A stretch of DNA of 64,000 nt from Isurus oxyrinchus. Its lineage: Eukaryota. Position numbers and translations under genes: made by a program. The number at the start of each line of letters is the position of its first letter. Within the stretch, counting starts at the first letter, position 1. Positions 23,680-64,000 of this stretch are shown one piece after another. The DNA is taken from contig JANJGN010000026.1 of assembly GCA_026770705.1 (NCBI GenBank), forward strand, positions 5,580,001 to 5,644,000, read 5' to 3'. The notes beneath the pieces were generated by a model that had not been told where the DNA came from, did not search any database, and saw only the letters and a program-made list of their open reading frames with translations.

Positions 23680-25089
23680 CCTTGGTTATCATCAGTAAAG
23701 TGTTGGAAGGGGTCATGATAAGGGCTATAAAAAGGCACTACTTTAGCAATTACCCGCTCAATGATGCTCAGTTTCGGTTCCGCCAGTGTCGCTCAGCTCC
23801 TGACCTCATTACAGCCTTGGTTCAAATATGGACAATAGAGCTGAACTCCCGAGGTGATGTGAGGTTGACTGCCCATGACGTTATGGCAACATTTGACTGA
23901 GTATTTCATCAAGGAGCCCAAGCAAAGTTTGAGTCAATGGGATCGGGAGGGTGGAGGGGAGGGGTGGGGGGGGTGGTGGGGGCGGTGGGTGGAATACTTC
24001 ACTGGTTGCAGTCATACCTAGCACAAAGGAAAATGGTTGTCGTTATTGGACGTCAATCATCTCAGTTCCAGGACATCACCGCAGGAGCTCCTCAGGATTC
24101 TGCCTTAGGCCCAACCATCTTCAGCTGCTTCATCAATCACCCTCCTTCAATTGTAAGGTCAGAATTGGGAATGTTCGCTGATGATTGCACAATGTTCAGC
24201 ACCATTCGCGACTCCTCAGATATTAAAGTAGTCCATATGCAAATGCAACAGGGCCTGGACAATATTCAGGCATGAGCTGACGAGTGGTAAGGGACAGTCA
24301 CACCACACAAGTGTGAGGCAATTACCATCTCCAACAAGAGAAAATCTATCTATTTCCCCTTGACGTTCAATGGCATTACCATCGCTGAGTACTGCCCGCA
24401 CCCCCCCCCCCCCACCCCCACCGCCACAACCAGCATCAATACTCTCGAGGTTACCGTTGGCTAGAAACTGAACTGGAGTAGACATATAAATGCTGTGGCT
24501 ACAAGGGCACATCAGGCACTTGGAATCTTATGGTAAGTAACTCACTTCTTCACTCTCCAAAGCCTTCCTACCATCTACAAGGCCCAAGTCAGGAATGTGA
24601 TGGTGTATTCTCCACTTGCCTGGATGAGTGTGCAGCTCTAACAAGGCCCAGGAAGATAAAAAATATGCAGAAAAAAGCAGCCCGCCTGATTGGCAACCCA
24701 GCCACAAACATTCACTCCCTTCACTACCAAAGCACAGCAGCAATGTTTATCATCTTCAAAATGCACTTCAGGAACTCACCAAGGTTCCTTAGACAGCACG
24801 CTGTAAATCCACAACCTCTAGCAAGGGCATCAGATTGATGGGACTGCCACGGCCTGAGAGATCCCCTCAAACCTACTTACTATCCAAACTTGGAAATATA
24901 TCGTTGTTCCTTCACTGTCGTTGGGTCAAATTCCTGGAACTCCCTCCCTAGCCACACTGTAGCCACGGCACAGGAAGTGCAGCGGTTCAAGATGGCTACT
25001 CACCACCATCCTCTCAAGGCAAATTAGGGATGGGCAATAAATGCTGGCCACGCCAGCGACGCACACATGCCATAAATCAACAATAAAAA
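23680..25089 (+). mobile_element. L2/CR1-group LINE, copy 4 (longest; RT domain remnant)
   Basis: IISKVLEGV...DAQFRFRQ...DV.ATFD, LHWLQSYLAQRKMVVVI...GAPQDSALGPTIFSCFIN...MFADDCTMF, broken by stops. 3' tail GGGATGGGCAATAAATGCTGGCC. Confidence 0.92.
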
Positions 25090-31100: not shown

Positions 31101-34100
31101 GGCTCAATCTGTGGGGAATCATCTGGAATTCAGGTTCATTTCATTAGGGACTGTACTGGGATCAGTCAGTGTCAGTCCATTAGGGACGTGGCTGGCCTCA
31201 TTCTGTGAGGAATAAATTCGACTTCAGGGTTAGTCCATTTGGGACAGGTTTTGTGCTCAGTCTGTGGAACATCATTTGGGGTTCATGGTCAGTTCATTAG
31301 GTACAGGGCTTGTTTCAATCTGTGGGGAATCAACTGGAGTTCAGGGTCCGTCATCTAGGGGCATGGCTGGACTCAGTCTTTGAGGAATCAATTGTAGTTC
31401 AGAGACAGTCCATTCGGCACATGTCTTGGCTCAGTCTATGGGGAAACATATGGAGTTGAAGATCAGCATATTGTGGACAGGACTGTGCACAGACTCTGGG
31501 GAATCAGTTGGGGTTCAGGGTCATTCATTTAAGGACAGGGCTTTGCTCCGTCTGTGTGGAATCGATTGGAGTCCAGGATCAGTTCCTTAGGGACAGGACT
31601 TGGTCAGTCCGTGGGGAATGAATTTGAGTTCACGGTGAGTTCATTTGGGGCTGGGCTGGGTTCAGATTGTGGGGATCAATAGGAGCTCAGGGTCAGTCAA
31701 TTAGGTTCAGGAATTGTCTCAGTCTGTGGGAATGAATTGGAGCTCAGGGTTAGTCGATTTGGGAAAGCGCTCTGTTCAGTCTGAGGGGAATTCGTGGGAG
31801 TTCAGTGTCAGTCCATTCGGGACAGCAAAGGGCTCAGTCTGTGGCAAATCAGTTGGAATTCAGGGTCAGCCCATTAGGGACAGGACAGTGCTCAGCCTGT
31901 GCTGAATCAATCGGAGTTCACGTTCCGTCCATTAGGGAAAGGACTGCGCTCAGTCTGTGGCTAATGAATTGGAGTTCAGAATCAGGCCATTTAGGGACAG
32001 GACTGGGCTCAGTGTGTGGGGAATCAATTGTATTTTAGTGTGAGTCCATTAGGGACAGGACTGGAACAAGTCTGTAAGGAACTGACTGGAGATCAGAGTC
32101 AGTCCATTAGGGATAGGACTGGCTTCAGTCTATGGGAATTCAAGTGCAGTACAGTGTCAGTCCTTTAGGGACAGGGCTGGGCTCTTTCTGTTCAGAATTG
32201 ATTAGAATTCAGGCTGAGTCAATTAGGGACAGGAGTGGTCTCAGTCTGTGAAGAATATATTGGAGTTCAGGATTAGTCCATTCGGAAGAGTACTTGGGTC
32301 CGTCTGTGGGGAATCAATTGGAGTTCAGGTCAGTCATTTAGGGGCATGGCTGGACTCAGTCTGTGGGGAATCAATATCAGTTCAGAGACAGTCCATTCGG
32401 GACATGACTTGGCTCAGTCTATTGGAAATGAATTGGAGTTCAAGGTCAGTTTATTGTGGACATGACTGTGCTCAGACTGTGTGGAATCAGTTGGAGTTCA
32501 GGATCAGTCCATTCGGGAGTCAGTCTGTGTGGAATCAAATGGACTTCAGCGTCATTCCATAAGAGACAGCTCCGGGCCCAGATTGTGGGGAATCACCCGG
32601 AATTCAGGGTCCCTACGTAAGGGACAGGAATTAGCACAGTCTGTGGGTAATAAATTGGAGTTCAGGGTATGTCGATTTGGGACAGGACTTGGCTCAGTCT
32701 GTTGAGATTCGATTGAAGATCAGGGTCAGTCCATTAGGGACACGACTGAACTCCGCCTGTGAGTTATAAATTGGCGCTCAATGTCATCTCAATAGGGACA
32801 GGCCTGGGTTCTGTCTGTGGGTAATCAATGGGAGTTCAGGGACATCCTTTAGGGATACGACTGGGCTCAGTATGTGGGGAATCAATTGGTGTTCAGGGTC
32901 AGACATTCGGGGCAGGCGAGGACTCAAGTCTGTTGGGAATCGATTGGAGTTCATCTGAATTCATTAGTGACATGGTTGGGCTCAAACTGTGAGGAATCAA
33001 TTGGAGTTCAGGGCCAGTCCTTTAGGGACAGGACTGGGCTGAGGCAGTGGTGAATCTATTGGAGTTCAGCGTAGGTCTATTAGGGGCATTATTGGGCTCA
33101 GGCTGTGGTGAATCCATCGGATTTCTGGGTCAAGTCATTCAGCTACAGGGCTTTGCTCATTCTCTGTGACATCAATTGGAGTTCAGGTTCAGTGCATAAG
33201 CGACAGGTCCGGACTCATTCTGTGGGGAATCGATTGGAGTTCAGCATCAGCCCGTTATTGACAGGGCTGAACTCAGTCTCTGAGTTATCTGTCGGAGTTC
33301 AGGGGCACTACATTAGGGACAGGACTTGGATCAGTCTGTGGGGAAGCAATTGGAGTTCATGGTGAGTTCATTTGGGAAAGGGCTCTATTCTGTCTGAGGG
33401 GAATCAATGGGATTTCTGGGTCAGTCCATTTTGGACAGCAAAGGGCTCAGTCTGTGGGGAATCAGTTGGCGGTCAGGGTCAGCCCATTAGGGACAGGACA
33501 GGGCTCAGCCTGTGAGGAATCAATGGGAGTTCAGGTTCCGTCCAGTAGTGACAGGACTGGTCACAGTCTGTGGCGAATTAATTGGAGATCAGAATCAGGC
33601 CATTAAGGAGAAGACAGCACACAGTCTGTTCAGAATCGATTGCAGTTCATGTTCAGTCCATTTAGGGACAGGACTGGGCTCAGTATGTGGGAATCAAATG
33701 TATTTTAGTGTGAGTCCATTAGATAGAGGACTGGAACAAGTCCGGAGGGACTGACTGGAGTTCAGAGCCAGTCCATTAGGGATAGGACTGGGCTCAGTGT
33801 GTAAGGAATCATTTGGAGTTCAGGGTTAGTCATTTAGGGAAAGGGATTTGCTCCGTCTGTCAGGAATCGATTGGAATCCAGGGTCAGTTGCTTTGGGACA
33901 GGACTTCGATCAGTCCATGTGGAGTCAATTGGAGTTCACGGTGAGTTCATTTGGGGCTGGGCTCTGTTCAGTCTATGGGGCATCCATAGGAGCTCATAGT
34001 CAATCCATTAGTTTCAGTAATTGGCTCAGTCTGTGGGAATGAATTGGAGCTCAGGGTGAGTCCATTTGGGACAGCAAAGGGCTCAGTCTGTGGCGAATCA

Positions 34101-37100
34101 GTTTGCGGTCAGGGTCAGCCCATTAGGGACAGGACGGGGCTCAGCCTGTGAGGAATCAATGGGAGTTCAGGTTCCGTCCAGTAGTGACAGGACTGGGCTC
34201 AGTCTGTGGCGAATTAATTGGAGTTCAGAATCAGGCCATTAGGGAGACGACAGGAATCAGTCTGTTCAGAATCGATTGGAGTTCATGTTCAGTCCATTTA
34301 GGGACAGGACTGGGCTCAGTGTGTGGGGAATCAATTGTATTTTAGTGTGAGTCCATTAGGTACAGGACTGGAACAAAACTGTAAAGCACTGATTGGAGTT
34401 CAGAGTCAGTCCATTAGGGATTGGACTGGCTTCAGTCTATGGGAATTCAAGAGGAGTACACTGTCAGTCCATCAGGGACAGGGCTGGCCTCTTTCTGTTC
34501 GGAATTGATTGGAATTCCGGGTGAGTCCATTGGGGACAGGAGTGGTCTCAGTCTGTGAGGAATAAATTGGAGTTCAGGTTCAGTCCATTCGGGAGAGTAC
34601 TTGGGTCAGTCTTTGTGGAATCAATTGGCGTTCAGGTCAGTCATTTAGGGGCATGGCTGGACTCAGTCTGTGGGGAATCAATAGCAGTTCAGAGACAGTC
34701 CATTCGGGACATGACTTGGCTCAGTCTGTGGGAAATGAATTGGAGTTCAAGGTCAGTTTATTGCGGACAGAACTGTGCTCAGACTGTGGGGAATCAGTTG
34801 GAGTTCAGGGTGAGGCTATTAGGGACAGGACTTGGATCAGTCTGTGGGCAATGATATGGAGTTCACGGTTAGTCCATTTGGGAAAGCGATCGGTTCAGTC
34901 TGAGGGGTATCATAGGGAGTTCAGTGTCAGTACATTAGGGACAGGACTACGCTCAGCCTGTGGGGATCACCTGGAATTAAGGATCATTTCATTAGGGACT
35001 GGACTGGGCTCAGCCTGTGGAACATAAATTGAGCTCAGGTCAAGTTCATTAGGTACAGGGCTTGTTTCAATCTGTGGGGAATCAATTGGAGTTCAGGGTC
35101 CGTTATTTGGGGGTATGGCTGGACTCAGTCTTTGGGGAATCAATTGTAGTTCGGACACAGTGCATTCAGGACATGACTTGGCTCAGTCTATGGGAAACTA
35201 TTTGGAGTTCAAGGTCAGTTTATTGCGGACAGGACTGTGCTCAGACTGTGTGGAATCAGTTGCATTTCAGGGTCAGTCCATTAGGGACAAGACTTGGATC
35301 AGTCTGTGTGGAATGAATTGGTGTTCACGGTGAGTCCATTTGGGACAGCAAAGGGCTCAGTCTGTGGCGAATCAGTTGGAGTTCAGAGTCAGGCCATTAT
35401 GGACAGGACAGGGCTCAGCCTGTGAGGAATCAATGAGAGTTCAGGTTCCGTCCATTAGGGACAGGACTGGGCTCAGTCTTTGGCGAATTAACTGGAGTTC
35501 AGAATCGGGACATTAGGGAGACGACAGGACTCAGTCTGTTCATAATTGATTTGAGTTCATGTACAGTCCATTTAGGGACAGGACTGGGCTCAGCGAGTGG
35601 GTTATCAATTGTATTTTAGTGTGAGTCCATTAGGTACAGGACAAGTCTGTAAGGAACTGACTGGAGATCAGAATCAGTCCATTAGGGATAGGACTGGCTT
35701 CAGTCTATGGACATTCAAGTGGAGTACAGTGTCTTTCCATCAGGCACGGGGCTGGGCTCTTTCTGTTCGGAATTGATTGGAATTCAGGGTGAGTCAAATA
35801 AGGACAGGAGTGGTCTCAGTCTGTGAGCAATAAATTGGAGTTCATGATCAGTCCATTCGGGAGAGTACTTGGGTCAGTCTGTGTGGAATCAAATGGAGTT
35901 CAGCGTCATTCCATAAGAGACAGCTCCAGGCCCAGATTGTGGGGAATCACTCGGAATTCAGGGTCCATACGTAAGGGACAGGAATTAGCACAGTCTGTGG
36001 GTAATAAATTGGAGTTCAGGGTATGTCGATTTGGGACAGGACTTGGCTCAGTCTGTTGGGATTCGATTGAAGATCAGGGTCAGTCCATTAGGGACAGGAC
36101 TGAACTCCGCCTGTGAGTTATAAATTGGCGCTCAATGCCATCCTAATAGGGACAGGCCTGGGTTCTGTCTGTGGGAAATCAATGGGACTTCAGGGACACC
36201 CTTTAGGGACACGACTGGGCTCAGTATGTGGGGAATCAATTGTTGTTCAGGGTCAGACATTAGGGGCAGGCGAGGACTCAAGTCTGTTGGGAATCGATTG
36301 GAGTTCATTTCAATCCATTAGTGACATGGCTGGGCTCAAACTGTGAGGAATCAATTGGAGTTCAGGGCCAGTCCTTTAGGGACAGGACTGGGCTGAGGCA
36401 GTGGTGAATCTATTGGAGCTCAGGGTAGTTCTATTAGGGGCATTATTGGGCTCAGGCTGTGGTGAATCCATCGGATTTCAGGGTCAGTCATTCAGCTACA
36501 GGGCTTTGCTCATTCTCTGGGACCTCAATTGGAGTTCAGGTTCAGTGCATAAGCGACAGGTCCGGACTCATTCTGTGGGGAATCAATGGGAGTTCACGGT
36601 CTGTCTATTAGGGACAGGACTGGGATCAGTCTATGGTGAATCAAACGGAGTTCAGGGTGAGTCATTTAAGTACAGGGCTTTGCTCATTCTCTGAGACATC
36701 AATTGGAGTTCAGGGTCAGTCCATAAGCGACAGGTCTGGACTCATTCTGTGGGGAATCGATTGGAGTTCTGCATCAGCCCGTTATTGACAGGGCCGAACT
36801 CAGTCTCTGAGTTATCCGTCGGAGTTCAGGGGCACTACATTAGGGACAGGACTTGGATCAATCTGTGGGGAAGCAATTGGAGCTCATGGTGAGTCGTTTT
36901 GGGAAAGGGCTCCATTCGGTCTGAGGGGAATCAATGGGATTTCTGGGTCAGTCCATTTGGGACAGCAAAGGGCTCAGTCTGAGGCGAATCAGTTGGAGGT
37001 CAGGGTCAGCCCATTAGGGACAGGATAGGGCTCAGCCTGTGAGGGATCAATGGGAGTTCAGATTCCGTCGAGTAGTGACAGGACTGGGCACAGTCTGTGG

Positions 37101-39415
37101 CGAATTAATTGGAGATCAGAATCAGGCCATTAGGCAGACGACAGGACACAGTCTGTTCAGAATCGATTGGAGTTCATGTTCAGTCCATTGAGGGACAGGA
37201 CTGGGCTCAGTCCGTGAGGAATCATTTGGAGTTTAGGGTTAGTCATTTAGGGACAGGGATTTGCTCCGTCTGTGAGGAATCGATTGGAATCCAGGGTCTG
37301 TTCCTTTGGGACAGGACTTCGATCAGTCCGTGCGGAGTCATTTGGAGTTCACGGTGAGTTCATTTGAGGCTGGGCTGGGTTCAGACTATGGGGCATCAAT
37401 AGGAGCTTATAGTCAATCCATTAGTTTCAGTAATTGGCTCAGTCTGTGGGAATGAATTGGAGCTCAGGGGGAGTCCATTTGGGAAAGCGCTCGGTTCAGT
37501 CTAGGTGGAATTTTTGGGAGTTCAGTGTCAGTATATTAGGGACAGGACTACGCTCAGCTTGTGGGGAATCACCTGGAATTCAGGGTCATTTCATTAGGGA
37601 TAGGGCTGGGCTCAGTCTGTTGCGAAACAATTGGAGTTCAGTGTCAGTCCATTAGGGACAGGACTGGGCTCAGCCTGTGGAACATCAATTAGAGTTCAGG
37701 GTAAGTTCATTATGTACAGGGCTTGTTTCAATCTGTGGGGAATCAATTGGAGTTCAGGGTCCGTCATTTAGGGGCATGACCGGACTGAGTCTTTGGGGAA
37801 TCAATTGTAGTTCAGAGACAGTCCATTCGTGACATGACTTGGCTCAGTCTATGGGAAATTATTCGGAGTTCAAGGTCAGTTTATTGTGGACAGGGCTGTG
37901 CTCAGACTGTGGGATATCAGTTGGAGTTCAGAGTCAGTCCATTAGGGACAGGACCTGGATGAGTCTGTGAGGAATGTATTGGAGTTCATGGTGAGTTCAT
38001 TTAGGAAAGGGCACGGTTCGGTCTGAGGGGAATCAATGGGATTTCAGGGTCAATCCATTTGGGACAGCAAAGGGCTCAGTCTGTGGGGAATCAGTTGGCG
38101 GTCAGGGTCAGCCCATTAGGGACAGGACAGGGCTCAGCCTGTGAGGAATCAATGGGAGTTCAGGTTCCGTCCATTAGGTATAGGACTGGCCACAGTCTGT
38201 GGCGAATTAATTGGAATTCAGAGTCAGGCCATTAGGGAGACGACAGGAATCAGTCTGTTCAGAATCGATTGGAGTTCATGTTCAGTCCATTTAGGGACAG
38301 GACTGGGCTCAGTGTGTGGGGAATCAATTTTATTTTAGCGTAAGTCCATTAGGTACAGGACTGGAACAAGTCTGTAAGGAACTGATTGGAGTTCAGAGTC
38401 AGTCCATTAGGGAGAGGACTGGCTTCAGTCTGTGGGAATTCAAGTGAAGTACAGTGTCAGTCCATTAGGGACAGGGCTGGGCTCTTTCTGTTCGTAATTG
38501 ATTGGAATTCCGGGTGCATCCATTAGGGACAGGAGTGGTCTCAGTCTCTGAAGAATACATTGGAGTTCAGGATCAGTCCATTCGGGAGTCAGTCTGTTTG
38601 GAATCAAATGGAGGTCTCCGTCGTTCCATAAGAGAGAGCTCCGTGCCCAGGTTGTGGGGAATCACCCGGAATTCAGGGTCCCTACGTAAGGGACAGGAAT
38701 TAGCACAGTCTATGGGTAATAAATTGGAGTTCAGGGTATGTCGATTTGGGACAGGACTTGGCTCAGTCTGTGCGGATTCGATTGGAATTCAGGGTTAGTC
38801 CATTAGGGACAGGACAGGGCTCAGTCAGAGGGCAATCAATTGGGGTTCATGGTCTGTGGGGAATCAATTGATGTTCAGGGTCAGTCCATTAGGGAGAGGA
38901 CTGGACTCAGCCTGTGAGTTATAAATCGGCGCTCAATGTCATCCCAATAGGGACAGGACTGTGCTCTGTCTGCGGGCAATCAGTGGAAGTTCAGGGACCT
39001 CCTTTAGAGAGACGATTGGGCGCAGTATGTGGGGAATCAGTTGGTGTTCAGGGTCAGCAATTTGAGACAGGAGAGGACTCAGACAGATGGGAATCGATTG
39101 GAGTTCATTTCAATCCATTAGGGACATGACTGGCCTCAAGCTGTGAGGAATCAATTGGAGTCCAGGGTCAGTTCCTTAGGGACAGGACTTGGATCAGTCC
39201 GTGGGGAATAAATTGGAGTTCACGGTGAGTTCATTTGGGGCTGGGCTGGGTTCAGTCTGTGGGGAATCAATAGGAGCTCAGAGTCAATCCATTAAGTTCA
39301 GGAATTGGCTCAGTCTGTTGGAAGGAATTGGAGCTCAGGGTGAATCCATTTGTGAAAACGCTTGGTTCAGCCTGAGGGGAATCATTGGGAATTAAGAGTC
39401 AGTACGTTAGGGACA

Positions 39416-39520
39416 ACTCTTCAAGTTCTGTCGAAGGGTCATGAGGACTCGAAACGTCAACTCTTTTCTTCTCCGCCGATGCTGCCAGACCTGCTGAGTT
39501 TTTCCAGGTAATTCTGTTTT
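39416..39520 (+). mobile_element. Single-arm Penelope-type hammerhead element inserted in the satellite, 11-bp TSD
   Basis: TSD CGTTAGGGACA at 39405-39415 and 39521-39531. Contains AGTT-CTGTCGA-AGGGTC-ATGAG-GACTC-GAAAC-GTC-AACT. Confidence 0.92.
39424..39462 (+). ncRNA. Minimal type-I hammerhead ribozyme-like motif (core variant CUGUCGA)
   Basis: Stem I AGUU/AACU, core CUGUCGA...GAAA, stem II GGGUC/GACUC, minimal ACGU stem III and a GUC cleavage triplet. Activity is untested. Confidence 0.6.
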
Positions 39521-42500
39521 CGTTAGGGACAGGACTACGCTCAGGCTGCGAGGAATCAATTGGAGTTCAGGGTCAGTCCATTTAGGGAAAGGTCTGGGCA
39601 CAGTGTGTGGGGAAGCAATTATATTCAATGTGAGTCCATTTGGGACAGAGCTGGGCTCAAACTGTGGGGAATCATTCAGTGACAGTCCATTACGTACAGG
39701 ACTAGACCAAGTCTGTAAGGAACTGATTGGAGTTCAGAATCAGTCCATTAGTGATAGGACTGGCTTAAGTGTGTGGGAATTCAGGTGGAGTACAGAGTCT
39801 GTCCATTAGGGACACGTCTGGGCTCGTTCTGTTCGGAATTTATTGGAATTCAGGGTGAGTCCATTAGGGACAGGACTGGTCTTAGTCTGTGAGGAATAAA
39901 ATGGAGTTCAAGATCAGTCCATTAGGGAGAGGACTGGGGTCAGTCTGTGTGGAATCAAATGGAGTTCAGCGTCATTCCATAAGCGACAGCTCCGGCCTCA
40001 AATTGTGGGGAATCACAGGAGCTCAGGGTCACTGCATTTGGGACAGGAATTAACACAGTCTGTGGGTAATAAATTGGAGTTCAGGGTATGTCGATTCGGG
40101 ACAGGAGTTGGCACAATCTGTGCGGACTCTTTTGGAATTCAGGGTCAGTCCATTAGGGACTTGACACAGCTCAGTCACAGGGCAAGCAATTGGGGTTAAG
40201 CGTCTGTCCATGTGGTACAGGACTGGGCTCAGTCTGTGGGGAATCAATTGTAGTTCAGGGTCAATCCATTAGGGACAGGACTGGACTCAGTCTGTGATTT
40301 AAAATCGGAGCTCTATGTCTTCCCAATAGTGATAGGACTGGGTTCTGTCTGCAGGGAATCAATTGGTGTTCAGGGTCAGACATTCGTGTCAGGCGACGTC
40401 TCAGACTATTGGGAATCGATTGGAGTTCATTTTTATCCATTAGGGACATGACATGGCTCAAACTGTGAGGAATCAATTGGAGTTCAGGGTCAGTCCATAA
40501 GCAACAGGTCCGGACTCAGTCTGTGGGGAATCGATTGGAGTTCAGCATCAGCCCATTATTGAAAGGGCTGACCTCAGTCTGTGGGTTATCCGTCGGAGTT
40601 CAGGGGCACTAGATTAGGGACAGGAATGGGCTCAGTCTGTGGGTAATAAATTGGAGGTCACGTTATGTCCATTTGGGACACGACTTGGCTCAGTCTGTGG
40701 GGAATCAATTGGAGTTCAGGATCAGTCCAATAGGGACAGGACTGGACTCAGTCTGTGAGAATAATTCGGAGTTCAATGTCATCCCAACAGGGACAGGACT
40801 GGGCTCAATCTGTGGGGAATCATCTGGAATTCAGGTTCATTTCATTAGGGACTGTACTGGGATCAGTCAGTGTCAGTCCATTAGGGACAGGGCTGGCCTC
40901 ATTCTGTGAGGAATAAATTCGAGTTCAGGGTTAGTCCATTTGGGACAGGTTTTGTGCTCAGTCTGTGGAACATCATTTGGGGTTCAGGGTCAGTTCATTA
41001 GGTACAGGGCTTGTTTCAGTCTGTGGGGAATCAACTGGAGTTCAGGGTCCGTCATTTAGGGGCATGGCTGGACTCAGTCTTTGGGTAATCAATTGTAGTT
41101 CAGAGACAGTCAATTCGGCACATGTCTTGACTCAGTCTATGGGGAATCATATGGAGTTGAAGATCAGCATATTGTGGACAGGACTGTGCACAGACTCTGG
41201 GGAATCAGTTGGAGTTCAGGGTCATTCATTTAGGGACAGGGCTTTGCTCCGTCTGTGTTTAATCGATTGGAGTCCAGGATCAGTTCCTTAGGGACAGGAC
41301 TTGGTCAGTCCGTGGGGAATGAATTGGATGTCATGGTGAGTTCATTTGGGGCTGGGCTGGGTTCAGTCTGTGGGGAATCAATAGGAGCGCAGGGTCAGTC
41401 CATTTGGTTCAGGAATTGTCTCAGTCCGTGGGAATGAATTGGAGCACAGGGTTAGTCGATTTGGGAAAGCGCTCGGTTCAGTCTGAGGGGAATTAGTGGG
41501 AGTTCAGTGTCAGTCCATTCGGGACAGCAAAGGGCTCAGTCTGTGCTGAATCAATCGGAGTTCAGGTTCCGTCCATTAGGGACAGGACTGGGCTCAGTCT
41601 GTGGCGAAATAATTTGAGTTCAGAATCAGGCCATTAGGGAGACGACAGGACTCAGTCTGTTGAGAATCGATTGGAGTTCATGTTTAGTCCATTGAGGGAC
41701 AGGACTGGACTCAGTGCGTGGGTTATCAATTCTTTTTAGTGTGAGTCCATTAGGTACAGGACTGGAACATGTCTGTAAGGAACTAACTGGAGTTCAGTGT
41801 CAGTCCATTAGGGTTAGGACTGGCTTCAGTCTATGGGAATTCAAGTGGAGTACAGTATCAGTCCTTTAGGGACAGGGCTGGGCTCTTTCTTTTCGGAATT
41901 GATTAGAATTCAGTGTGAGTCCATTAGGGACAGGAGTGGTCTCAGTCTGTGAAGAATATATTGGAGTTCAGGATCAGTCCATTCGGGAGAGTACTTGGGT
42001 CCACTGTTTGGGGATTAATTGGAGTTCAGCATCAGTCATTTAGGGGCATGGCTGGACTCAGTCTTTGGGGAATCAATTGCAGTTCAGAGACAGTCCTTTC
42101 GGGACATGACTTGGCTCAGTCTATTGGAAATGAATTGGAGTTCAATGTCAGTTTATTGTGGACAGGACTGTGCTCAGACTGTGTGGAATCAGTTGGAGTT
42201 CAGGGTGAGGCTATTAGGGACAGGACTTGGATCAGTCTGTGGGGAATGAATTGGAGTTCACGGTTAGTCCATTTGGGAAGGCGATCGGTTCAGTCTGAGG
42301 GGATTCGTTGGGAGTTCAGTTTCATTGCATTAGGGACAGGACTAGACTCAGTCTGTTGCGAAACAATTGGAGTATAGAGTCAGTCCATTAGGGACAGGGC
42401 TGGGCTCTTTCTGTTCGGAATTGACTGGAATTCAGGATGAGTCCATTAGGAACAGGAGTGGTCTCAGTCTGTGAGGAACAAATTGAAGTTCTGGATCAAT

Positions 42501-45500
42501 CCATTCGGGAGAGTACTTGGGTCAGTCTGTGTTGAATCAAATGGAGTTCAGCATCAGTCCATAAGCGAAAGCTCCGGGCTCAGATTCTGGGGAATCTACC
42601 GGTTTTCAGGGTCACTACATTAGGGACAGGAATTTGCACAGTCTGTGGGTAATAAATTGGAGTTCATGGTCAGTCCATTAGGGACAGGACAGGGCTCAGT
42701 CAGAGGGCAATCAATTGGGGTTCATGGTCTGTCCATGTGGTACAGGACTGGGCTCAGTCTGTGTGGAATCAATTGAAGATCTGGGTCAGTCCATTAGGGA
42801 GAGGACTGGACTCAGCCTTTGAGTTATAAATCGGCGCTCAATGTCATCCCAATAGGTACTGGGTTCTGTCTGCAGGGAATCAACGGGAGTACAGGAACAT
42901 CCTTTAAAACACGAATGGGCTCAATGTGTGGGCATCAGCCTGTGAGGAATCACCTGGAATTCAGGCTTATTTCATTGGGGACAGGACTGGGCTCAGTCTG
43001 TTGTGAATGAATTGGAGTTCAGAATCAGGCCATTAGGGAGACGACAGGACTCAGTCTGTTCAGAATCGATTGGAGTTCATGTTCAGTCCATTTAGGGACA
43101 GGACTGGGCTCAGTGTGTGGGGAATCAATTGTATTTTAGTCTGAGTCCATTAGGTACAGGACTGGAACAAGTCTGTAAGGAACTGATTGGAGTTCAGAGT
43201 CAGTCCATTAGGGATAGGACTGGCTTCAGTCTGTGGGAATTCAAGTGGAGTACAGTGTCAGTCCATTAGTGACAGGGCTGGGCTCTTTCTGTTCGGAATT
43301 GATTGGAATTTAGGGTGAGTCCATTAGGGACAGGAGTGGTCTCACTGTGTGAAGAATACATTGGAGTTCAGCATCAGCCCTTTCGGGAGTCAGTCTGTGT
43401 GGAATCAAATGGAGTTCAGCGTCATTCCATAAGAGACAGCTCCGGGCCCAGATTGTGGGGAATCACCCGGAATTCAGGGTTCCTACGTAAGGGACAGGAA
43501 TTAGCACAGTCTGTGGGTAATAAATTGGAGTTCAGGGATGTCCATTTGGGACTGGACTCGGTGCAGTCTGTTGGGATTCGATTGAAGATCAGGGTCAGTC
43601 CATTAGGGACAGGACTGAACTCCGCCTATGAGTTATAAATTGGCGCTCAATGCCATCCTAATAGGGACAGGCCTGGGTTCTGTCTGTGGGAAATCAATGA
43701 GAGTTCAGGGACATCCTTTAGGGACACGACTGGGCTCAGTATGTGGGGAATCAGTTGTTGTTCAGGGTCAGACATTCGGGGCAGTCGAGGACTCAAGTCT
43801 GTTGGGAATCGATTGGAGTTCATTTCAATCCATTAGTGACATGGCTGGGCTCAAACTGTGAGGAATCAATTGGAGTTCAGGGCCAGCCCTTTAGGGGCAG
43901 GACTGGGCTGAGGCAGTGGTGAATCTATTTGAGTTCAGGGTAGTTCTATTAGGGGCAGTATTGGGCTCAGGCTGTGGTGAATCCATCGGATTTCAGGGTC
44001 AGTCATTCAGCTACAGGGCTTTGCTCATTCTCTGGGACCTCAATTGGAGTTCAGGTTCAGTGCATAAGCGACAGGTCCGGACTCATTCTGTGGGGAATCA
44101 ATGGGAGTTCAGGGGCAGAATATTAGGGATAGGACTGAGATCAGTCTGCTGAGAATAAATTGGAGTTCACGGTCTGTCCATTAGGTACAGCACTGGGATC
44201 AGTCTATGGTGAATCAATCGGAGTTCGGGGTCAGTTTTTTAAGTATAGGGCTTTGCTCATGCTCTGGGACATCAATTGGAGTTCAGGGTCAGTACATAAG
44301 CGACAGGTCCGCTCTCAGTCTGTGGGAAATCGATTGGAGTTCAGCGTCAGCCCATTATTGACAGGGCTGACCTCAGTCTGTGGATTATCCGACGGCGTTC
44401 AGGGGCTCTACATTAGGGACAGGAATGGGCTCATTCTGTGGGTAATAAATTGGAGGTCAGGTTATGTCCATTTGTGACACGACTTTGCTCAGTCTGTGAG
44501 GAATCAATTGGAGTACAGTGTCATCCATTAGGGACATTGCTGGGCTCAGTCTGTGGAGCATCAGTAGGAGTTCAGGTTCTGTTCATTATGTACAATCTGT
44601 GGGGAATCAATTGGAGTTCAGTGTCAATATATTTCGGGTAGGACTACGCAGTCTGTGGGGAATGGTTGGAGCTCAGGGTCAGTCCATCAGGGACAGGACT
44701 GGGGTCAGTCTGTGGGGACTCAATGCTGGTTAAGCATCAGTTCATTAGGGACACGACTGGGCTCAGGCTGTGGGGAATCAATTGGAGTTCAGTGTCGTTC
44801 ATTTAGGCACATGGCTGGGCTCAGTCTTTGGGATACAATTGGAGTCCAGAATCAGTCTATAAGTGACAGGTCCGGACTCAGTCTGTGGGGAATAGATTGG
44901 AGTTCAAGGTCTGTCATTTAGGGACAAGGCATTGCTCATTCTCTGGGGAGTCAATTGGAGTTCATGGTCAGTCCATAAGCGACAGGTCCGGACTCAATTT
45001 GTGGGGAATTGATTGGAGTTCAGGGTCAGCCCATTAGGGACAGGGCAGGGCGCAGACTGTGGGGAATCATTCGGAGTTCAGGGTCACTATATTAGGGACA
45101 GGAATGGGCTTATATATTTTATAACATAAATTTATTTTTTACTATTTGAAAATCTGGCTGTTGACAGTGAGGGTATCTGGTTGAGAAACTGGAAGAAGCA
45201 GCCTAAAGTAAATGCACTTCATACAACCTTGGAGTTTATTACACCTAAAAGACTGAGGCAATATTGACTCCAGGTTAATAGCTGGAAATGTAAGATCATG
45301 GAGATTAGAATAAGGGGAGGTCTAACACGATGTCACAATGTTTAAGCCTTCATAGGTGCCTATCTTGAGCTGGGAGATTGCAACCTTAGGGCGGTTGGAT
45401 ACTTGACGTGGTAACCTTCCAGTAATTGGAAGGCCCACAAAAACTGAGCCTGTACATGACATATTTCCCAGGCCAAGCAGTTAATTTTCCTGACTGGAGA

Positions 45501-51696: not shown

Positions 51697-51766
51697 ATGC
51701 ATGCTCCAGGAAATGGACCAGTATTTGCCATTTATTATTCTGCTCTTGCTGCTTTCGGTGTTCCAG
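51697..51766 (+). pseudogene. Exon 1 of GPR139/GPR142-like GPCR (N-terminus and start of TM1)
   Basis: MHAPGNGPVFAIYYSALAAFGVP, then a phase-1 donor CCAG|GTAAG. It joins in frame to exon 2 as GVP-A-NLVTIVIL. Confidence 0.88.
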
Positions 51767-52649
51767 GTAAGCTTTTGAGGAAAGTGAAAAACTGGACAAT
51801 TCAATCTTTAACCGTGCCATCTATGAGTTGCTGATTGCTTACCACAGAGTTCACGTTTTTTCTCCCAACTGCCTTAGGACTATTCCATCCCATCATTGCA
51901 GTACCATTACTCTCCACTACGTGGCTTGTTGAAAGATAAATTGAACTCCGTCTCTATAATAAGGAACCCAGTTAGAATATGACTTTTTGTGGAATATTGT
52001 AAAGAAGTTGTGTTCTACAACATGCTGTTGCATGTTCAAGATGCATTATAATACATTCACGTCTACAGACATTGCTCTGGAACTGCATAAATTTATTCAC
52101 CTCTCACAGTTCCATGGAACTTGCTTTGACGATCATCCAATGCCCGATTTCCTTAAATCTGAATGGTACAGATATTTGTAGATGATAGAAATGCAACAAG
52201 AAATATTTAGATCGTGACGTTAATATTTTGGACAATGTAATGCAATCTGTGTACAAGTGGTTTAAGCTAGGTTCGAAGTACTGAAGCAGCTTGATATGAT
52301 TCTTTTCCTTCTGTTGTTGTTTCCAACTTTACAGAAGCTCCTTGTAAGATGTTGAACATTTTCAACAATTTTGGTTGGCACTCCTCATGTTTGCAGTTGC
52401 TATGATTGAATGGAGTGACGTTATCGTACTATTATAATTAATGAGATTTTCTGAAGACCATGAATAGATGCTGAAATCCTCGATTAACTTTAACTGGTTC
52501 AGCAGCGTTATCAATAAATCTAAGTTATTTTCCAGGTTGTGTGTGAACTTTCAGAGGCGAAGTTCATTTTACTAATATTCAGTCACTTGATTTCCCTGAA
52601 AAATAATGTCAAATTATACCGCTCCATCAGAAGGCAGTAAGTTGGAACT

Positions 52650-52960
52650 CCGCTACAAATCCCGAGTCTGCAATCCAGCTCTGTACTCCTGGTGCATTGC
52701 TAGAGAACTGGAACACCGTCAAGCCTGCCATCCTTCTGAAGAAGAGGTGAGCGGAGGTCGTTCTGCTTCTTCAATCAGAGGGACCCGTGCCACTGTTATA
52801 AGAGCAGATATCTCTGTCTGTGAATCATAAACAGCATTCCACCGGCAAGATATATTAGAAATAAATGCAGAGAAATCTCGAACCTCCCTCCCTACTTTAG
52901 CAGAACATCGCTGGCGATAACACCTCCCATTAATGGATTCAGTGCACTGCAAAATAACTG
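52650..52960 (+). mobile_element. Possible ancient DeuSINE-like remnant in the GPCR intron
   Basis: Weak similarity (from memory) to the shark SINE body: TGCCATCCTTCTGAAGA...GACCCGTGCCACTGTT..AAGAGCAG. Confidence 0.3.
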
Positions 52961-53494
52961 CTGATACGCCTTGACTTCTTTCCACAGGAGTAGAGGCCGA
53001 ATTCAATCGATACTGCTGGCGCAAGGCTTTCTTTTGAGTAACATTGATCCTTAATTATATGTATGACAACCTTCTTATTAACCATATATCAGTTCATGCC
53101 ATTCGCTTCATTCTACACTTATTACAGTTCTTCTGTAGTTCTTATTGTCATAACTTACTATGATTAAACATGAATCAATGCATTGTATTTTATTATAATT
53201 AATACTATGTTAACATTGTTATTCCGTCGATATATTGCCTTGCTAAATTATGTTCCTTCTATTTCAGTTATTTATAAAGTTTGCTTGAATCTACAAAAAA
53301 CGCTACATTTTATTTCATGTTCGGCATTCCTGTGTTATTTGGAACATTCATGTGTTTTGTTGGACAACGAGTAATACATTGGTAGACCAAGCAGTTTCGG
53401 TGTTGACTCGTACAAGTTTCATACCATTCTGCCGCCAAGCGAAGTTGCAACTGTGACTCTGATTACGAACTCCGTCCTTCTCTCTGTCTTGCAG

Positions 53495-54477
53495 CTAACT
53501 TGGTGACGATTGTGATCCTGTGCCGAGGAAGGTGCGGTCTGTCCAGATGTATCACTTACTACCTGGTGTCCATGGCAGTGACTGATCTCCTTGTCATTAT
53601 CACTGCTGTGATATTAAGCCGGCTTCGTACTATCTATTTCCCACTTAGTTTCCTCTCCATTACCCCTGCCTGCAGCCTAGTTGTTGGCCTCAGCTGCACT
53701 TCCAGAGACAGTTCTGTTTGGTTAACTGTCGCTTTCACTTTCGATCGCTTCATAGCCATTTGCTCCCAGCAGCTGAAATTGAAATACTGCACTAGAAAAA
53801 CAGCAGCTGTGGTTAGTGGAATGGTCTGTGTCCTGTTCTGTTTCAAAAACGCCCCTTTTTACTTCATATATGAACCTATCTATGTCATCAATAACGTACC
53901 TTGGCACTGCAGCATGAAGGAAATCATTTTTGTTTCCATCCCATGGACAGTGTTTGCCTGGTTGGACCGTATTCTAACCCCATGTCTCCCTTTCATCTTG
54001 ATTTTCCTGCTCAATATACTGACTGTCAGATACGTTCTATCAGTCAGTTGAGCCCGGGGGAGACTCCGAGCACAAAACAATAGACAGACTCAGAGTGACC
54101 CAGAGATGGAGAGCCGCAGAAAGTCCATCATTTTACTCTTCACCATCTCGGGCAGCTTCCTCCTGCTTTGGTTGACATATGTTGTAAATTTCCTAGTTGT
54201 ACGAATTACAGGTAATAATTATTCTATTGGCTCTAATTCCAATGGTCTGAAATTTATTCTGCAGGAAAGCGGGTACATGCTGCAACTCTTGAGTTCCTGC
54301 ACCAATACGTGTATTTATGCAGGGACCCAGAGTAAATTCAGAGGAGAGTTGAGGGACGCAGTTAAATACAACTTCAATCTAATAACGAATGGCATTAACG
54401 GTGAACATAGTTTTAGATATTGTTGCAGTAATTCTGTCCCTGCTTCGAATTGCAATAAAGAAGAGCATAAAGTTTAG
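53495..54477 (+). pseudogene. Exon 2 of GPR139/GPR142-like rhodopsin-class GPCR with one premature stop
   Basis: Acceptor TCTCTGTCTTGCAG|. Contains NLVTIVILCRGRCGLSRCITYYLVSMAVTDLLV, VAFTFDRFIAIC, TPCLPF, then TGA at 54049-54051. The same frame continues ARGRLRAQNNRQTQSDPEMESRRKSIILLF...SSCTNTCIYAGTQSKFR to TAG at 54477. Spliced length is 351 codons, with the stop at codon 209. Confidence 0.92.
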
Positions 54478-54742
54478 TCAGCATTCGGCCGACCTGTACA
54501 CGGTTGGTTCAATTCTATTATTCTCCTTAATATTCATAAATTTATGCATGCCTGAGCGGCTGGTATTGTGTTATTTTTGGTTAAATTTATTAAACAGTGG
54601 GAAGAATTTCCATTATCAATACGAGTTGACCCTGTTTTATTCTCAATCTCTTCACCTCGGTGATAATCACAGGTTGAAGCCGGTTTGCATCTTTCACCAC
54701 CAGGATCCAGTGGCTAACAGAAACAGTGCATTTGGGAAGTAA

Positions 54743-54977
54743 AAACAAAAAACTGCGGATGCTGGAAATCCAAAACAAAAACAGAATTACCTGGAAACCT
54801 GAGCAGGTTTCGCAGCATCGGTGGAGAAGAAAATAATTGACGTTTCGAGTCCTCATGACCCTTCAACAGAACTGAGTCCCAGTTCTGTTGAAGGGTCATG
54901 AGGACTCGAAACGTCAACTCTTTTCTTCTTCGCCGATGCTGCCAAACCTGCTGAGTTTTTCCAGGTAATTCTGTTTT
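54743..54977. mobile_element. Palindromic Penelope-type short element with two opposed hammerhead motifs, 14-bp TSD
   Basis: Arms 54778-54874 and 54880-54977 (inner 38 bp perfect, 5-nt loop AGTCC). TSD CATTTGGGAAGTAA at 54729-54742 and 54978-54991. Confidence 0.93.
54881..54919 (+). ncRNA. Minimal hammerhead ribozyme-like motif (core variant CUGUUGA); mirror copy on the minus strand at ~54835-54873
   Basis: AGTT-CTGTTGA-AGGGTC-ATGAG-GACTC-GAAAC-GTC-AACT. Confidence 0.6.
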
Positions 54978-55117
54978 CATTTGGGAAGTAAGTTCACCTC
55001 AGTCCTGTTTGGTTCTGCTGGTTTTCAGGCTATTCCAAATTCCCAACTCTCCCGTTCGCCTTGGTCCTGGTGTGCGAAATTCTGATGTCATTACACAGAG
55101 GGGGCTTGTGTATGTAC

Positions 55118-55362
55118 TGCTGAGAACATCCAGCAGAGGATGGGTCAGTAAAGGTGTGTGGGATTAATTCTGAGAGCATCCAGCAGAGGGTAGATCAGTA
55201 CAGGAGTGTGTGTGTAATTCTGAGAGCATCCAGCAGAGGATGGGTCAGTAAAGGCGTATGGGTGTCATTCTGAGAGCATCCAGCAGAGGCTGGGTAAGTA
55301 AAGGTTGCGTGTGTAATTGTGAGAGCATCCAGCAGGGGGTAGACCAGACAAGATGTGTGTGT

Positions 55363-55417
<55 letters not shown>

Positions 55418-55649
55418 TGTGAGAGCATCCAGCAGAGGGTGGGTCAGTAAAGTGGTGTGTGTAATTCTTAGACCATCCAGCAGAGGGTAGATCAGTAAAG
55501 GAGTGTGTGAGTAATTCTGAGAGCATCCAGCAGAGGATGGGTCAGTAAAGGCGTGTGCGTGTAATTCTGAGAGCATCCAACAGAGCATGGGTAAGTAAAG
55601 GTGTGTGTGTATAATTGTGAGAGCATCCAGCAGGGGGTAGATCAGAAAT

Positions 55650-55684
<35 letters not shown>

Positions 55685-55822
55685 AATTGTGAGAGCATCC
55701 AGCAGAGGGTGGGTCAATAAAGTGGTGTGCGTAATTCTTAGAGCATCCAGCAGAGGGTGGGTCAGTAAAGTGGTGTGTGTAACTCTTAGAGCATCCAGCA
55801 GGGGGTCGGTCAGTAAAGGTGA
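55118..55822. repeat. ~50-bp minisatellite (GTAATTCTGAGAGCATCCAGCAGAGGGTGGGTCAGTAAAGGTGTGTGT) with embedded (GT)n expansions
   Basis: GAGAGCATCC at 55171, 55222, 55272, 55321 and onward. Confidence 0.92.
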
Positions 55823-58029: not shown

Positions 58030-61000
58030 TTTTTCTGCCTCTCACTCTCTCTCTGTTTCCCTCTCTCTGCAAAACTCTCTCTCTCTCTGTCTCTCTCTTT
58101 CTCTGTCTCTCTCTCCCTGCCTCAGTCTATCTCTGCCTCCCTCCCTCTCTGCCTTGCTCTCTCTCTGCACGTCTGATCCTCCATACCCCTCTTTGCCTCT
58201 CACTGTATATTCCCCTCGCTCTTTCTCGTCTTTTCCGACTTTTTCTCTGTCCCCCGTTTTGGATCACTTTTTACCTCTATATGTTTCTTGCTCTCTCTTT
58301 TCCCCCTCTCTCCCATTCCCCCTGTCATTTCTCTGGGTCCCTTTCCCTTCTGTCTCTCTTTCTATCTCTATTCTATCCCTTTTCTGTCTCTTTATTCTGT
58401 CTCCTTTCTCTGTCTCTTTATTCTGTCCCTTTATTCTGTTTCCTTTCTCTGTCTCTTTATTCTGTCTCTTTATTCTGTCCCTTTATTCTGTCTCCTTTCT
58501 CTGTCTCTTTATTCTGTCTCTTTATTCTGTCCCTTTATTCTGTCTCCTTTCCCTGTCACTGCATTCTGTAGCTTTATTCTGCCTCTTAATTCTGTTTCCT
58601 TTCTCTGTCTCTTTATTCTGCCTTTTTATTTTCCCTCTTTATTCTGTCTCCTTTCTCTGTCTCTTTATTCTTCCTGTTTATTTTCCCTCTTTATTCTGTC
58701 TCCATTCTCTGTCTCCTTATTCTGTCTCTTTTATCTGTCTCTTTATTCTGCCTCTTTATTGTGTCTCCTTTCTCTCTCTCTTTATTCTGCCTCTTCATTC
58801 TGTCTCTTTTCTGTCTCTCCTCTTTATTCTATCTTTTTTCTCTGTCTCCTTTCTCTGTCACTTTATTCTGTCTATTTTCTCTATTCTCTCTCTTTATTCT
58901 GTCTCCTTTCTCTGTCCCTTTAATCTGTCTCTTTACTGTCTCTTTTCTCTATCTCCTTTCTCTGTCACTTTATACTGTCTCCTTTCTCTGTCTTTTTATT
59001 CTGTCTCTTTATTCTGTCTCTTTATCCTGTCACTTTAATCTGTCTCTTTTCTCTGTCTCTTTATTCTGTCTCTTTATTCTGTCTCTTTATTCTGTCTCTT
59101 TATTCTGTCTCTTTATTCTGTCTCTTTATTCTGTCTCTTTATTCTGTCTCTTTATTCTGTCTCTTTATTCTATACCCCTTCTCTGTGTCTTTATTCTGTA
59201 TCTTTATTATGCCTCTTTATTCTGTCACCTTTCTCTGTCTCTTAATTCTGTATCTTTATTCTGTGTCTTTTCTCTGTCCCTTTATTCTGCCTCTTTATTG
59301 TGATTCCTTTCTCTCTCTCTCTTTTGTCTGTCTCTTTATTCTGCCTCTTTCCTATTTCTCCTCTTTATTCTGTCTTTTTTCTCTGTCTCCTGTATCTTTC
59401 ACTTTATTCTGTCTATTTTCTCTATTCTGTCTCCTTTATTCTGTCTCCTTATTCTGTCTCTTTCCTGTCTTTTTTCTCTGTCACCTTTGTCACTTTATTC
59501 TGTCTCTTTTCTCTATTCTGTCTCTTTATTCTGTTTCCTTTCTCTGTTTCCTTCTTCTGTCACTTTATTCTGCCAATTTTTTTCTGTCTCTTTAATCCAT
59601 CTCTTTATTCTGTCTCTTTGTCTATTTATTCTGCCTATTTAATCGTTCTGTGTTTTTATTCTGCCTCTATTCTTTCTGTCTCTTCATTCTGCCTCTTTAT
59701 TCTTTCTATCTCTTTATTCTGTCTTCTTTCTCTGCCTCCTTATTCTGTCTGTTTATTCTGTCTCCTTTCTCTGTGTCTTTATTCTGTCTCCCTTTCCCTG
59801 TCTCTTTATTCTGTCTCTTATCTCTGTCTCCTTTCTCTGTCTCTTTATTCTGTCCCTTTATTCAGTCTCCTTTCTCTGTCTCTTTATTCTGTCTCTTTAT
59901 TCAGTCTCCTTTCTCTGTCTCTTTATTCTGTCTCTTTATTCTGTCCCTTTATTCTGTCTCCTTTCCCTGTCACTGTATTCTGTAGCTTTATTCTGCCTCT
60001 TAACTCTGTTTCCTTTCTCTGTCTCTTTATTCTGTCTCCTTTCTCTGTCTCTTTATTCTGCCTTTTTATTTTCCCTCTTTATTCTGTCTCCATTCTCTGT
60101 CTCCTTATTCTGTCTCTTTTATCTGTCTCTTTATTCTGCCTCTTTAGTGTGTCTCCTTTCACACTCTCTTTATTCTGCCTCTTCATTCTGTCTCTCCTCT
60201 TTATTCTGTCTTTTTTCTCTGTCTCCTTTCTCTGTCCCTTTATTCTGTCTTTTTTCTCTATTGTCTCTTTATTCTGTCTCTTTATTCTGTCTCTTTAATT
60301 TGTCTCTTTATTCTGTCCCTTTAATTTGTCTTTTCTCTGTCTCTTTATTCTGTCTCTTTATTCTATACCCCTTCTCTGTGTCTTTATTCTGCATCTTTAT
60401 TATACCTCTTTATTCTGTCACTTTTCTCTGTCTCTTTATTCTGTATCTTTATTCTGTGTCTTTTCTCTGTCCCTTTATTCTGCCTCTTTATTGTGATTCC
60501 TTTCTCTCTCTCTTTTTTTCTGTCTCTTTATTCTGCCTCTTTCCTATTTCTCCTCTTTATTCTGTCTTTTTTCTCTGTCTCATTTATCTTTCACATTATT
60601 CTGTCTATTTTCTCTATTCTGTCTCCTGTATTCTGTCTCTTTATTCTGTCTCTTTCCTGCCTTTTTTCTCTGTCTCCTTTGTCACTTTATTCTGTCTCTT
60701 TTTCTATTCTGTCTCTTTATTGTGTTTCCTTCTTCTGTTTCCTTCTTCTGTCACTTTATTCTGTCAATTTGTTCTGTCTCTTTAATCCATCTCTTCATTA
60801 TGTCTCTTTGCCTATTTATTCTGCCTATTTAATCGTTCTGTGTTTTTATTCTGCCTCTATCCTTTCAGTCTCTTCATTCTGCCTCTTTATTCTTTCTATC
60901 TCTTTATTCTGTCTCCTTTCTCTGCCTCTTTATTCTGTCTGTTTATTTTGTCTCCTTTTCTGTCATTTTTCTCTTTATTCCTTTCACTCCATTCTTTCTA
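58030..61000. repeat. Pyrimidine-rich 13-bp minisatellite (TCTGTCTCTTTAT)n with an internal 1.2-1.4 kb duplication
   Basis: Near-perfect run at ~59055-59170. Unique landmarks are duplicated at 58551/59965 and ~59633/60823. Confidence 0.92.
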
Positions 61001-62690: not shown

Positions 62691-62904
62691 GGTCCCCTTC
62701 CTCCCCTCCCCTGGAAAAGGCTTATCTCCCGCTTTAAAACTGGGGGCGGAAATGAGAACTGATTGTTTTGTAAAACCTGTGAAGACTTCAAAGGAATCAG
62801 TGAATGGAATTCAACCCCCTGCCCCCAACCTCCGACTGCCCAATTCACCATCTGGCCTTCAACAAAGGAAAAATAATAATACATAAATAATCTAAAAATA
62901 ACTG

Positions 62905-64000
62905 CGCTCAGTCTGTCCGGAATGAATTGGACTACAGGGTCAGTTCATTAGGGACAGAACTGGGCTCACTCTGTGGGGAATCAATTGGAGTTCAGGGTCA
63001 GTCCATTTGGGACAGGGCTGGGCTCAAAATTTGAGGAATCATTTGGAGTTCAGTGTCTGTCCATTAGGGACAGGGCTGGACCAAGTCTGTCAGGAACTGA
63101 TTGGAGTTCAGGGTCAGTAATTTAGGGACAGGGCTTTGCTCCGTCTGTGAGGAATCGACTGGAGTTCAGGTACAGTTCCTTAGGGACAGGACTTGGATCC
63201 GTCCGTGGGGAATCAATTGGAGTTCACGGTGAGTTCATTTGGGGCTGGGCTGGTTTCAGTCTGTGGGGAATCAATAGGAGCTCAGGGTCAGGCCATTAGG
63301 TTCAGGAATTGGCTCCGTCTGCGGGAATGAATTGGAGCTCAGTATGAGTCCATTTGGGACAGGGCTGGCCTCAATTTTTGAGGAATCATTTGGAGTTCAG
63401 GGTCTGTCCATTAGGGACAGGGCTGGACCAAGTCTGTCCGGAACTGATTGGAGTTCAGGGTCAGTCCATTAGGGACAGGACTGGCTTCAGTTTGTGGGAA
63501 TTCAAGTGGAGTACCGTGTCAGTCCATTACGGATAGGGCTGGACTCGTTCAGTTCGGAATTGATTGGAATTCAGGGTGATTCCATTAGGGACAGGACTGG
63601 CCTCAGTCTGTGAGGAATGAATTAGAGTTCAGAATCAATCCATTAGGGATATGACTGGGCTCATTCTGTTGTGAATCGATTGGAGTTCAGGGTGAGTCCA
63701 TTATGGACAGGACTGTGATCAGTCTGTTAGGACTCATTCGGAGTTCAGGGTCAGTACTTTAGGGACAGGAATGGGCTCAGACTTTGGGTAATATATTGGA
63801 GTTGAGGCTCAGTCTGTGAGGAATAAACTGGAGTTCAGGGTCAGTCCATTAGGACCAGGATTGGGCTCTCTCTGTGAGGAACTGATTGGAGTTTATGGTC
63901 AGTCCATGAGGGATAGGGTTGGGCTCAGACCGTGGGGAATCAATTGGACTTCTCTTTGAGATCATCAGGGACTGGGCTGGGTTCAGTCTGTGGGGAATCA
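62905..64000. repeat. Second block of the 58-bp satellite, same orientation, runs off the window
   Basis: Same consensus as 28260-45111. Confidence 0.96.

Follow-up and report, generated by a model that had tools for sequence, protein, structure and literature searches.

Genomic setting of the insert

The window analysed here, a 64-kb stretch of the Isurus oxyrinchus genome (contig JANJGN010000026.1), contains a GPR139-like receptor gene of two exons (51697-54477) that is interrupted by a premature in-frame stop codon at 54049-54051. Named elasmobranch proteins account for 119 of the best 120 of 815 matches to its product, the remaining one being unnamed, and the best among the matches listed, from Heterodontus francisci, is 79% identical. 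The focal element lies approximately 250 bp beyond the GPR139-like reading frame, possibly within the former 3′ UTR of the gene. A large 58-bp satellite with higher-order duplication occupies 28264-45110 and 62901-63998, with 95-97% identity between the segments at about 29.7 kb and 39.3 kb. Further tandem arrays, with units of 37-39, 48-50 and 13 bp, lie at 9516-14733, 55107-55818 and 58348-60964, and decayed LINE-type reverse transcriptase fragments are present at 23901-24272 and 18684-18911.

A 235-bp palindromic insert with asymmetric ends

The focal insert is 235 bp long (54743-54977) and lies between perfect 14-bp repeats of CATTTGGGAAGTAA, located at 54729-54742 and 54978-54991; the last one or two A residues of the left copy could equally belong to the end of the element. 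Among 5000 random 235-bp segments drawn outside the tandem arrays, with 3 bp of slop allowed, the longest flanking repeat was 10 bp, and none reached 11 bp or more.

The insert is composed of two inverted arms that meet head to head at a 5-nt spacer (54875-54879), which is immediately 5′ of helix I in both of the ribozyme motifs described below. The left arm has a pseudo-LTR (pLTR)-like body of 97 bp (54778-54874) whose sense strand is the minus strand, so that it reads outward, and the right arm of 98 bp (54880-54977) is sense on the plus strand; 38 perfectly complementary pairs adjoin the spacer. The element is nonetheless asymmetric, in that a 35-nt extension or ‘tail’ (54743-54777, minus strand) is present on the left arm and absent from the right, which terminates at a short end. 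Measured from helix II, the tailed end is at 119-120 nt and the short end at 85 nt. A preliminary description of this DNA, prepared without database searches, had reported the 14-bp target-site duplication, the inverted arms of approximately 97 bp, the 38-bp perfect stretch and the 5-nt loop, all of which are confirmed. It had also held the element to be non-coding, and we likewise find no useful coding capacity: no reverse transcriptase or GIY-YIG endonuclease reading frame of Penelope-like elements (PLEs) lies inside the insert, and in the two arms free of indels neither ATG frame stays open as far as the tail.

Minimal hammerhead motifs with a variant core

Each arm carries a minimal type-I hammerhead motif, as previously proposed. 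The left motif (54835-54873, minus strand) has C3 at 54869, a U in place of A at position 6 (A6U) at 54866, a 4-bp helix I with one G-U pair, a 5-bp helix II, and a predicted cut after 54839. In the right motif (54881-54919, plus strand) the core is at 54885-54892, with A6U at 54888 and an extra A at 54892, followed by helix II (54893-54907) and GAAA-C-G-UC; the GUC ends at 54915, after which the cut is predicted. The anatomy of a minimal type-I hammerhead is therefore as first described, but the core is non-canonical in having U for the conserved A6. The two ribozymes are on opposite strands, so a single transcript never holds both.

When position 6 is unconstrained, a descriptor based on the published features of minimal hammerheads has three matches in the window (both focal arms and one sibling described below) and none in 200 Markov resamples of it, and the same descriptor with the canonical A6 has none in the 64-kb window. 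Helices I and II, the extra base between 9 and 10.1, the G10.1-C11.1 pair, the palindromic 15.2-16.2 positions and the NUH site are retained in 3/3 subfamily arms that retain the region. The dimer-type ACGU palindrome is likewise intact in these three arms, each of which departs from the conserved core CUGANGA in having U at position 6. Rfam, searched in line with the preliminary description's suggestion of hammerhead models, gave no hammerhead match at the gathering score; the sub-cut-off matches are to generic hairpin or miRNA models and one 23S-methyl model, and were set aside. None of nine helix I and II pairs shows a two-sided change across four arms, one of them poorly aligned, which are too few for covariation to be judged.

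The hallmarks of minimal hammerheads given in the cited sections of Cervera and de la Pena 2014 (PMC4209133) are the extra base at 9/10.1, G10.1-C11.1, the palindromic 15.2-16.2 positions and a 4-bp helix I, and the focal motifs resemble these ribozymes in the extra base after A9, G10.1-C11.1, GAAA-C-G-UH, the lack of a helix III loop and the short helix I. The same sections report opposite-strand pairs of minimal hammerheads 100-700 bp apart and low activity of dimers; the focal pair differs in having U at position 6 and in being only approximately 15 nt apart. All 56 representatives in Fig. S3 of that study have A6, a count that is partly circular in that the descriptor required the core, and the representative list includes no cartilaginous fish. 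For A6C, Perreault et al. 2011 (PMC3088659) report a kobs of less than 0.1 per minute, and by analogy we infer that A6U may be as harmful. The focal ribozyme is probably crippled, and both hammerheads are predicted to be inactive in this copy.

Predicted folding of the insert

The insert RNA is predicted to form a hairpin of −162.8 kcal/mol (z −22.5), which none of 200 shuffles equalled. Partition-function folding assigns helices I and II a pairing probability of 1e-19 or lower on both strands, and forcing the ribozyme fold is predicted to cost approximately 65 kcal/mol relative to the hairpin. The antisense arm is transcribed ahead of the ribozyme on either strand, and predictions for growing 5′ prefixes do not release the ribozyme fold. 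These folding energies leave out protein assistance, and the ribozyme of an anole PLE is described as protein-assisted (cited part of PMC11167929). When the arms are considered singly, helices I and II form in the minimum-energy fold of the isolated right arm, and the minimum-energy structures of the left arm and of a sibling arm are not the ribozyme fold. A two-molecule hammerhead was modelled at −7 to −11.5 kcal/mol, less stable than alternative cofolds, but nearest-neighbour models omit the core and we give this comparison no weight.

It had been suggested that transcription of either strand yields a hammerhead together with its own antisense, and that the RNA could switch between cleavage and hairpin. 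The first part is correct, but the switch is not supported, because the ribozyme fold is buried – with the antisense arm first on both strands, a penalty of approximately 65 kcal/mol, helix probabilities of 1e-19 or less and the A6U core – barring a central transcription start or a protein that remodels the RNA. More generally, an active switch or retrozyme, in which the RNA would shift back and forth between a self-cleaving form and the hairpin and depend on cleavage to move, appears very unlikely. The intact helices I and II and ACGU palindrome of the three subfamily arms, and the folding of the isolated right arm, speak for it. Besides the variant core and the energetic penalty, it must contend with the presence of one ribozyme per strand, which precludes a cis dimer, with left and sibling arms whose minimum-energy fold is not the ribozyme, and with the absence of tandem units and the extension of inserted arms past the cut site. 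The proposed resemblance to retrozymes is likewise unsupported. Non-LTR retrozymes are, like the focal insert, short, non-coding, hammerhead-bearing and pLTR-related, but retrozymes are described as tandem head-to-tail units (cited portions of PMC7229834; Li et al. 2026, bioRxiv 10.64898/2026.07.22.740005) that can dimerise in cis and circularise, whereas the copies found here are inverted or solo, dispersed, and have a variant core. Read-through RNA of the focal copy would instead close up into a long hairpin with the ribozyme hidden inside it, and on these models the insertion is most probably passive, a source of double-stranded RNA rather than a catalytic switch.

Relatives of the insert within the window

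Four relatives of the focal insert are present in the 64-kb window. The first is a single-arm sibling of 105 bp (39416-39520, plus strand), in which the A6U core and the short end are identical to those of the focal copy, and which is flanked by an 11-bp duplication (39405-39415 and 39521-39531). Its target occurs once, at 29820-29830 (plus strand), in a second copy of the surrounding 58-bp satellite segment that is 95-97% identical to it, and this empty paralogous site shows that the sibling is an insertion, one that most simply postdates the duplication of the satellite segment. Together with the 14-bp duplication at the focal locus, it bears out the view that these are retrotransposed insertions that duplicate their target. 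The eight bases 5′ of helix I in the sibling (39416-39423) are unlike the focal spacer.

A palindromic sibling of the same subfamily (17670-17858) has a left-arm tail and has lost its ribozyme-bearing centre; it is flanked by a 13-14-bp duplication (17651-17664 and 17859-17872), and five unexplained additional bases (17665-17669) lie between the duplication and the tail. A palindrome of a related subfamily (17138-17303, with an approximate right boundary) has a left arm with a tail, a canonical CUGAAGA core with A at position 6 and a shortened helix II, and a right arm that is internally deleted; no clear target duplication was found for it. The fourth relative is diverged and cut by the window start (1-402), with an arm at 1-63 and a decayed ribozyme remnant near 55-90; its sequence runs on past the remnant, and its extent beyond approximately 90 is putative. 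A peptide encoded at 259-336 (plus strand) is a candidate C-terminus of a Penelope endonuclease, which it may resemble, and has no match in Pfam, PHROGs, PDB sequences or the Atlas.

Head-to-head inverted pLTR arms are therefore present in the focal, 17670 and 17138 copies, and in all three the left arm is tailed; the tail is absent from the focal right arm and from the 39416 sibling. The end of the tail is common to the focal and 17670 copies, with an identical tail terminating the left arm of the latter, and the focal copy and the 39416 sibling terminate in an identical short end. Duplications of 14, 13-14 and 11 bp flank three of the four copies tested. An ATT is present within the first six bases of two of the three duplications and, for the third, in the empty paralogue, which is a weak signal with a chance of approximately 10% each. 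A 5′ end or junction lies approximately 5-12 nt upstream of C3 in all four core-retaining arms, and since all four extend 5′ beyond the predicted cut site, their templates were uncleaved. The focal arms share one change that is absent from the three other arms, and a second that is absent from the single other arm covering the site. Sequence is missing at the centre or next to it in two of the three palindromes (17778-17786 and 17266-17275), consistent with hairpin-induced deletion.

Long inverted repeats, a short non-coding body and a target duplication would also suit a transposase-driven DNA transposon of foldback or MITE type. We regard such an origin as most improbable: the ends are asymmetric, the duplications (11, 13-14 and 14 bp) are not of fixed length, the ribozyme motif is of PLE type, and the insertion of a single arm with its own duplication largely refutes it.

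Relationship to Penelope-like elements

We think it likely that the 235-bp insert is a pair of head-to-head PLE terminal repeats (pLTRs), inserted by a PLE reverse transcriptase/GIY-YIG endonuclease and carrying hammerheads that are predicted to be inactive. The variable duplications (11-14 bp), the 35-nt tail on one arm, the fixed outer ends and a junction that abuts helix I on its 5′ side are established, as are the PLE-type minimal hammerhead anatomy with A6U and the repetition of the element in this genome and in other sharks. The Penelope origin put forward in the preliminary description is supported by the minimal-hammerhead hallmarks, the inverted arms, the one-sided tail and the short variable duplication.

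The head-to-head inverted architecture is already described for PLEs. Inverted 5′-truncated copies, one-sided tails of 30-40 bp, duplications of 8-10 bp, head-to-head palindromic junctions and trans-mobilisation by pLTRs are all reported in the cited sections of Craig et al. 2021 (PMC8557442) and Arkhipova et al. 2013 (PMC3846280), the latter favouring self-priming. The EN+ PLEs of these papers (Penelope/Poseidon, Neptune) share with the focal insert the head-to-head inverted repeat, a 30-40-nt tail, short variable target duplications and a hammerhead within the repeat, but the focal insert has no reading frame or internal body and consists of two repeat ends of approximately 100-130 nt. For Poseidon of Anolis carolinensis (PAc), the cited part of Frangieh et al. 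2024 (PMC11167929) describes nicking of both strands with extension, two internal reverse transcription starts that bound the tail, a cleavage preference for ATT, and insertion without ribozyme activity. As judged from that description, PAc and the focal insert are alike in having two ends that bound a tail, a similar distance from stem II and uncleaved RNA as the apparent template, and they differ in that the PAc reading frame starts at stem II, whereas the focal ATG frames close early in the indel-free arms.

By this model, a PLE protein would nick both target strands approximately 14 bp apart, and each nick would prime cDNA synthesis from an uncleaved RNA template. Synthesis would begin at either of two internal positions, 85 or approximately 120 nt downstream of helix II, so that one arm is short and the other tailed. 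Both cDNAs would copy the ribozyme, end immediately 5′ of helix I and then be joined. The derived changes that the focal arms share are explained no less well by a single template (a fold-back or palindromic master) or by later homogenisation than by two separate priming events.

Related sequences in other sharks and the question of a partner

Profile searches with the translated arm, in one of its three reading frames, identified related repeat pieces in gene models of Heterodontus (P0121), Carcharodon (P0125) and Rhincodon (P0126-P0129), and in three unnamed ENA proteins; a further candidate, P0131, is probably a chance match. The Glu codons of P0121 imply a canonical A6. In the whale-shark model P0129 an antisense arm is followed directly by a sense arm, and the palindrome is therefore present in that species too. 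P0129 also has a weak LINE-like reverse transcriptase match (E 0.058), and we read it as a chimeric gene model and not as a PLE.

An autonomous Penelope sharing these termini, the partner whose identification had been recommended, was not among the proteins recovered. One search gave five matches in 8000 scored candidates; the three that were fetched, a set that leaves out P0123 and P0124, have the appearance of host or spurious gene models. Another gave seven matches in 1.84 billion, all apparently host or spurious gene models, and a further one returned the query alone among 20. No PLE domain was found in the 101 open reading frames of the window. Assignment to the PLEs thus rests on the RNA motif and the architecture. 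The insert has no match in plasmids and phages, and one GTDB 21-mer match, with unrelated flanks, was judged to be chance and a prokaryotic origin rejected. Literature searches showed no account of this shark family, which Repbase and Dfam may already contain.

Within a PLE origin, two accounts of the short copies stand about equal. The first, which refines the preferred reading and keeps the core idea of the preliminary description minus the switch, is a dedicated non-autonomous mini-family. Its master RNA, either short or palindromic, would have neither a reading frame nor a working ribozyme and would depend on a PLE to copy it in trans. We regard this as plausible but tentative. It accommodates 5′ ends or junctions that fall within approximately 5-12 nt of C3 in all four ribozyme-retaining arms, A6U in two independent insertions, the closure of both ATG frames before the tail in the two indel-free arms, the direct passage from antisense to sense arm in P0129, and the derived changes common to the focal arms. 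It rests, however, on three subfamily insertions, one copy has a single arm, the 1-402 relative continues beyond its ribozyme remnant, and a real reading frame could begin downstream of the tail.

The second account, to which we give the same cautious credence, is that the copies are by-products of an autonomous PLE – 5′-truncated, inverted ends, or cDNAs primed nearest the 5′ end of its mRNA – with no life cycle of their own. The longer 1-402 relative fits here, with its candidate endonuclease-like peptide at 259-336, unmatched in the databases named above. So does the published structure of PLEs (cited sections of PMC8557442, PMC3846280 and PMC8969392), and opposite-strand minimal-hammerhead pairs 100-700 bp apart have been ascribed to truncated PLEs (PMC4209133, in the part cited). 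Inverted, truncated Penelope ends had been named in the preliminary description as the case that would overturn its proposal; they agree with that published structure, but the breakpoints here cluster rather than scatter, and the protein searches gave no partner reading frame.

Implications and minor observations

Taken alone, the focal locus is an ordinary repeat copy, one of five related copies in 64 kb, with related pieces in gene models of three other sharks. What makes it worth attention is the A6U subfamily, which can serve as a minimal record of how PLE ends become inverted. The origin of the inverted ends and one-sided tails of PLEs is treated as still open in the cited sections of PMC8557442 and PMC3846280, and these inserts reduce the inverted structure to approximately 235 bp with exact ends; counting them across the genome could help to distinguish two-strand priming from fold-back. 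The spread of a subfamily whose ribozyme core is altered would lend support to the in vitro finding that cleavage is unnecessary. A broader proposition, which at present we consider rather unlikely, is that sharks harbour abundant, recently active palindromic Penelope parasites of approximately 235 bp that have lost A6 and any reading frame and nevertheless continued to spread, each insertion being a record of the priming of both target strands at the two internal sites. If true, this would be evidence from nature that PLEs can move without hammerhead cleavage, and would supply a minimal substrate for studying the still unexplained step in which the inverted repeats arise.

Changes in the focal left arm at 54794-54811 create a perfect 8-bp local hairpin that is absent from the sibling arms. 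In a post hoc test, a hairpin as good arose in 53 of 200000 random trials of five changes, which suggests template-switch mutagenesis.

In P0125, a Carcharodon MATE1-like protein (isoform X4), 14 residues are identical to the translated arm of the 39416 sibling (compare window positions 54923-54970). The stretch terminates where the arm has a donor-like CAG/GTAAT site, and it is a possible exonisation.
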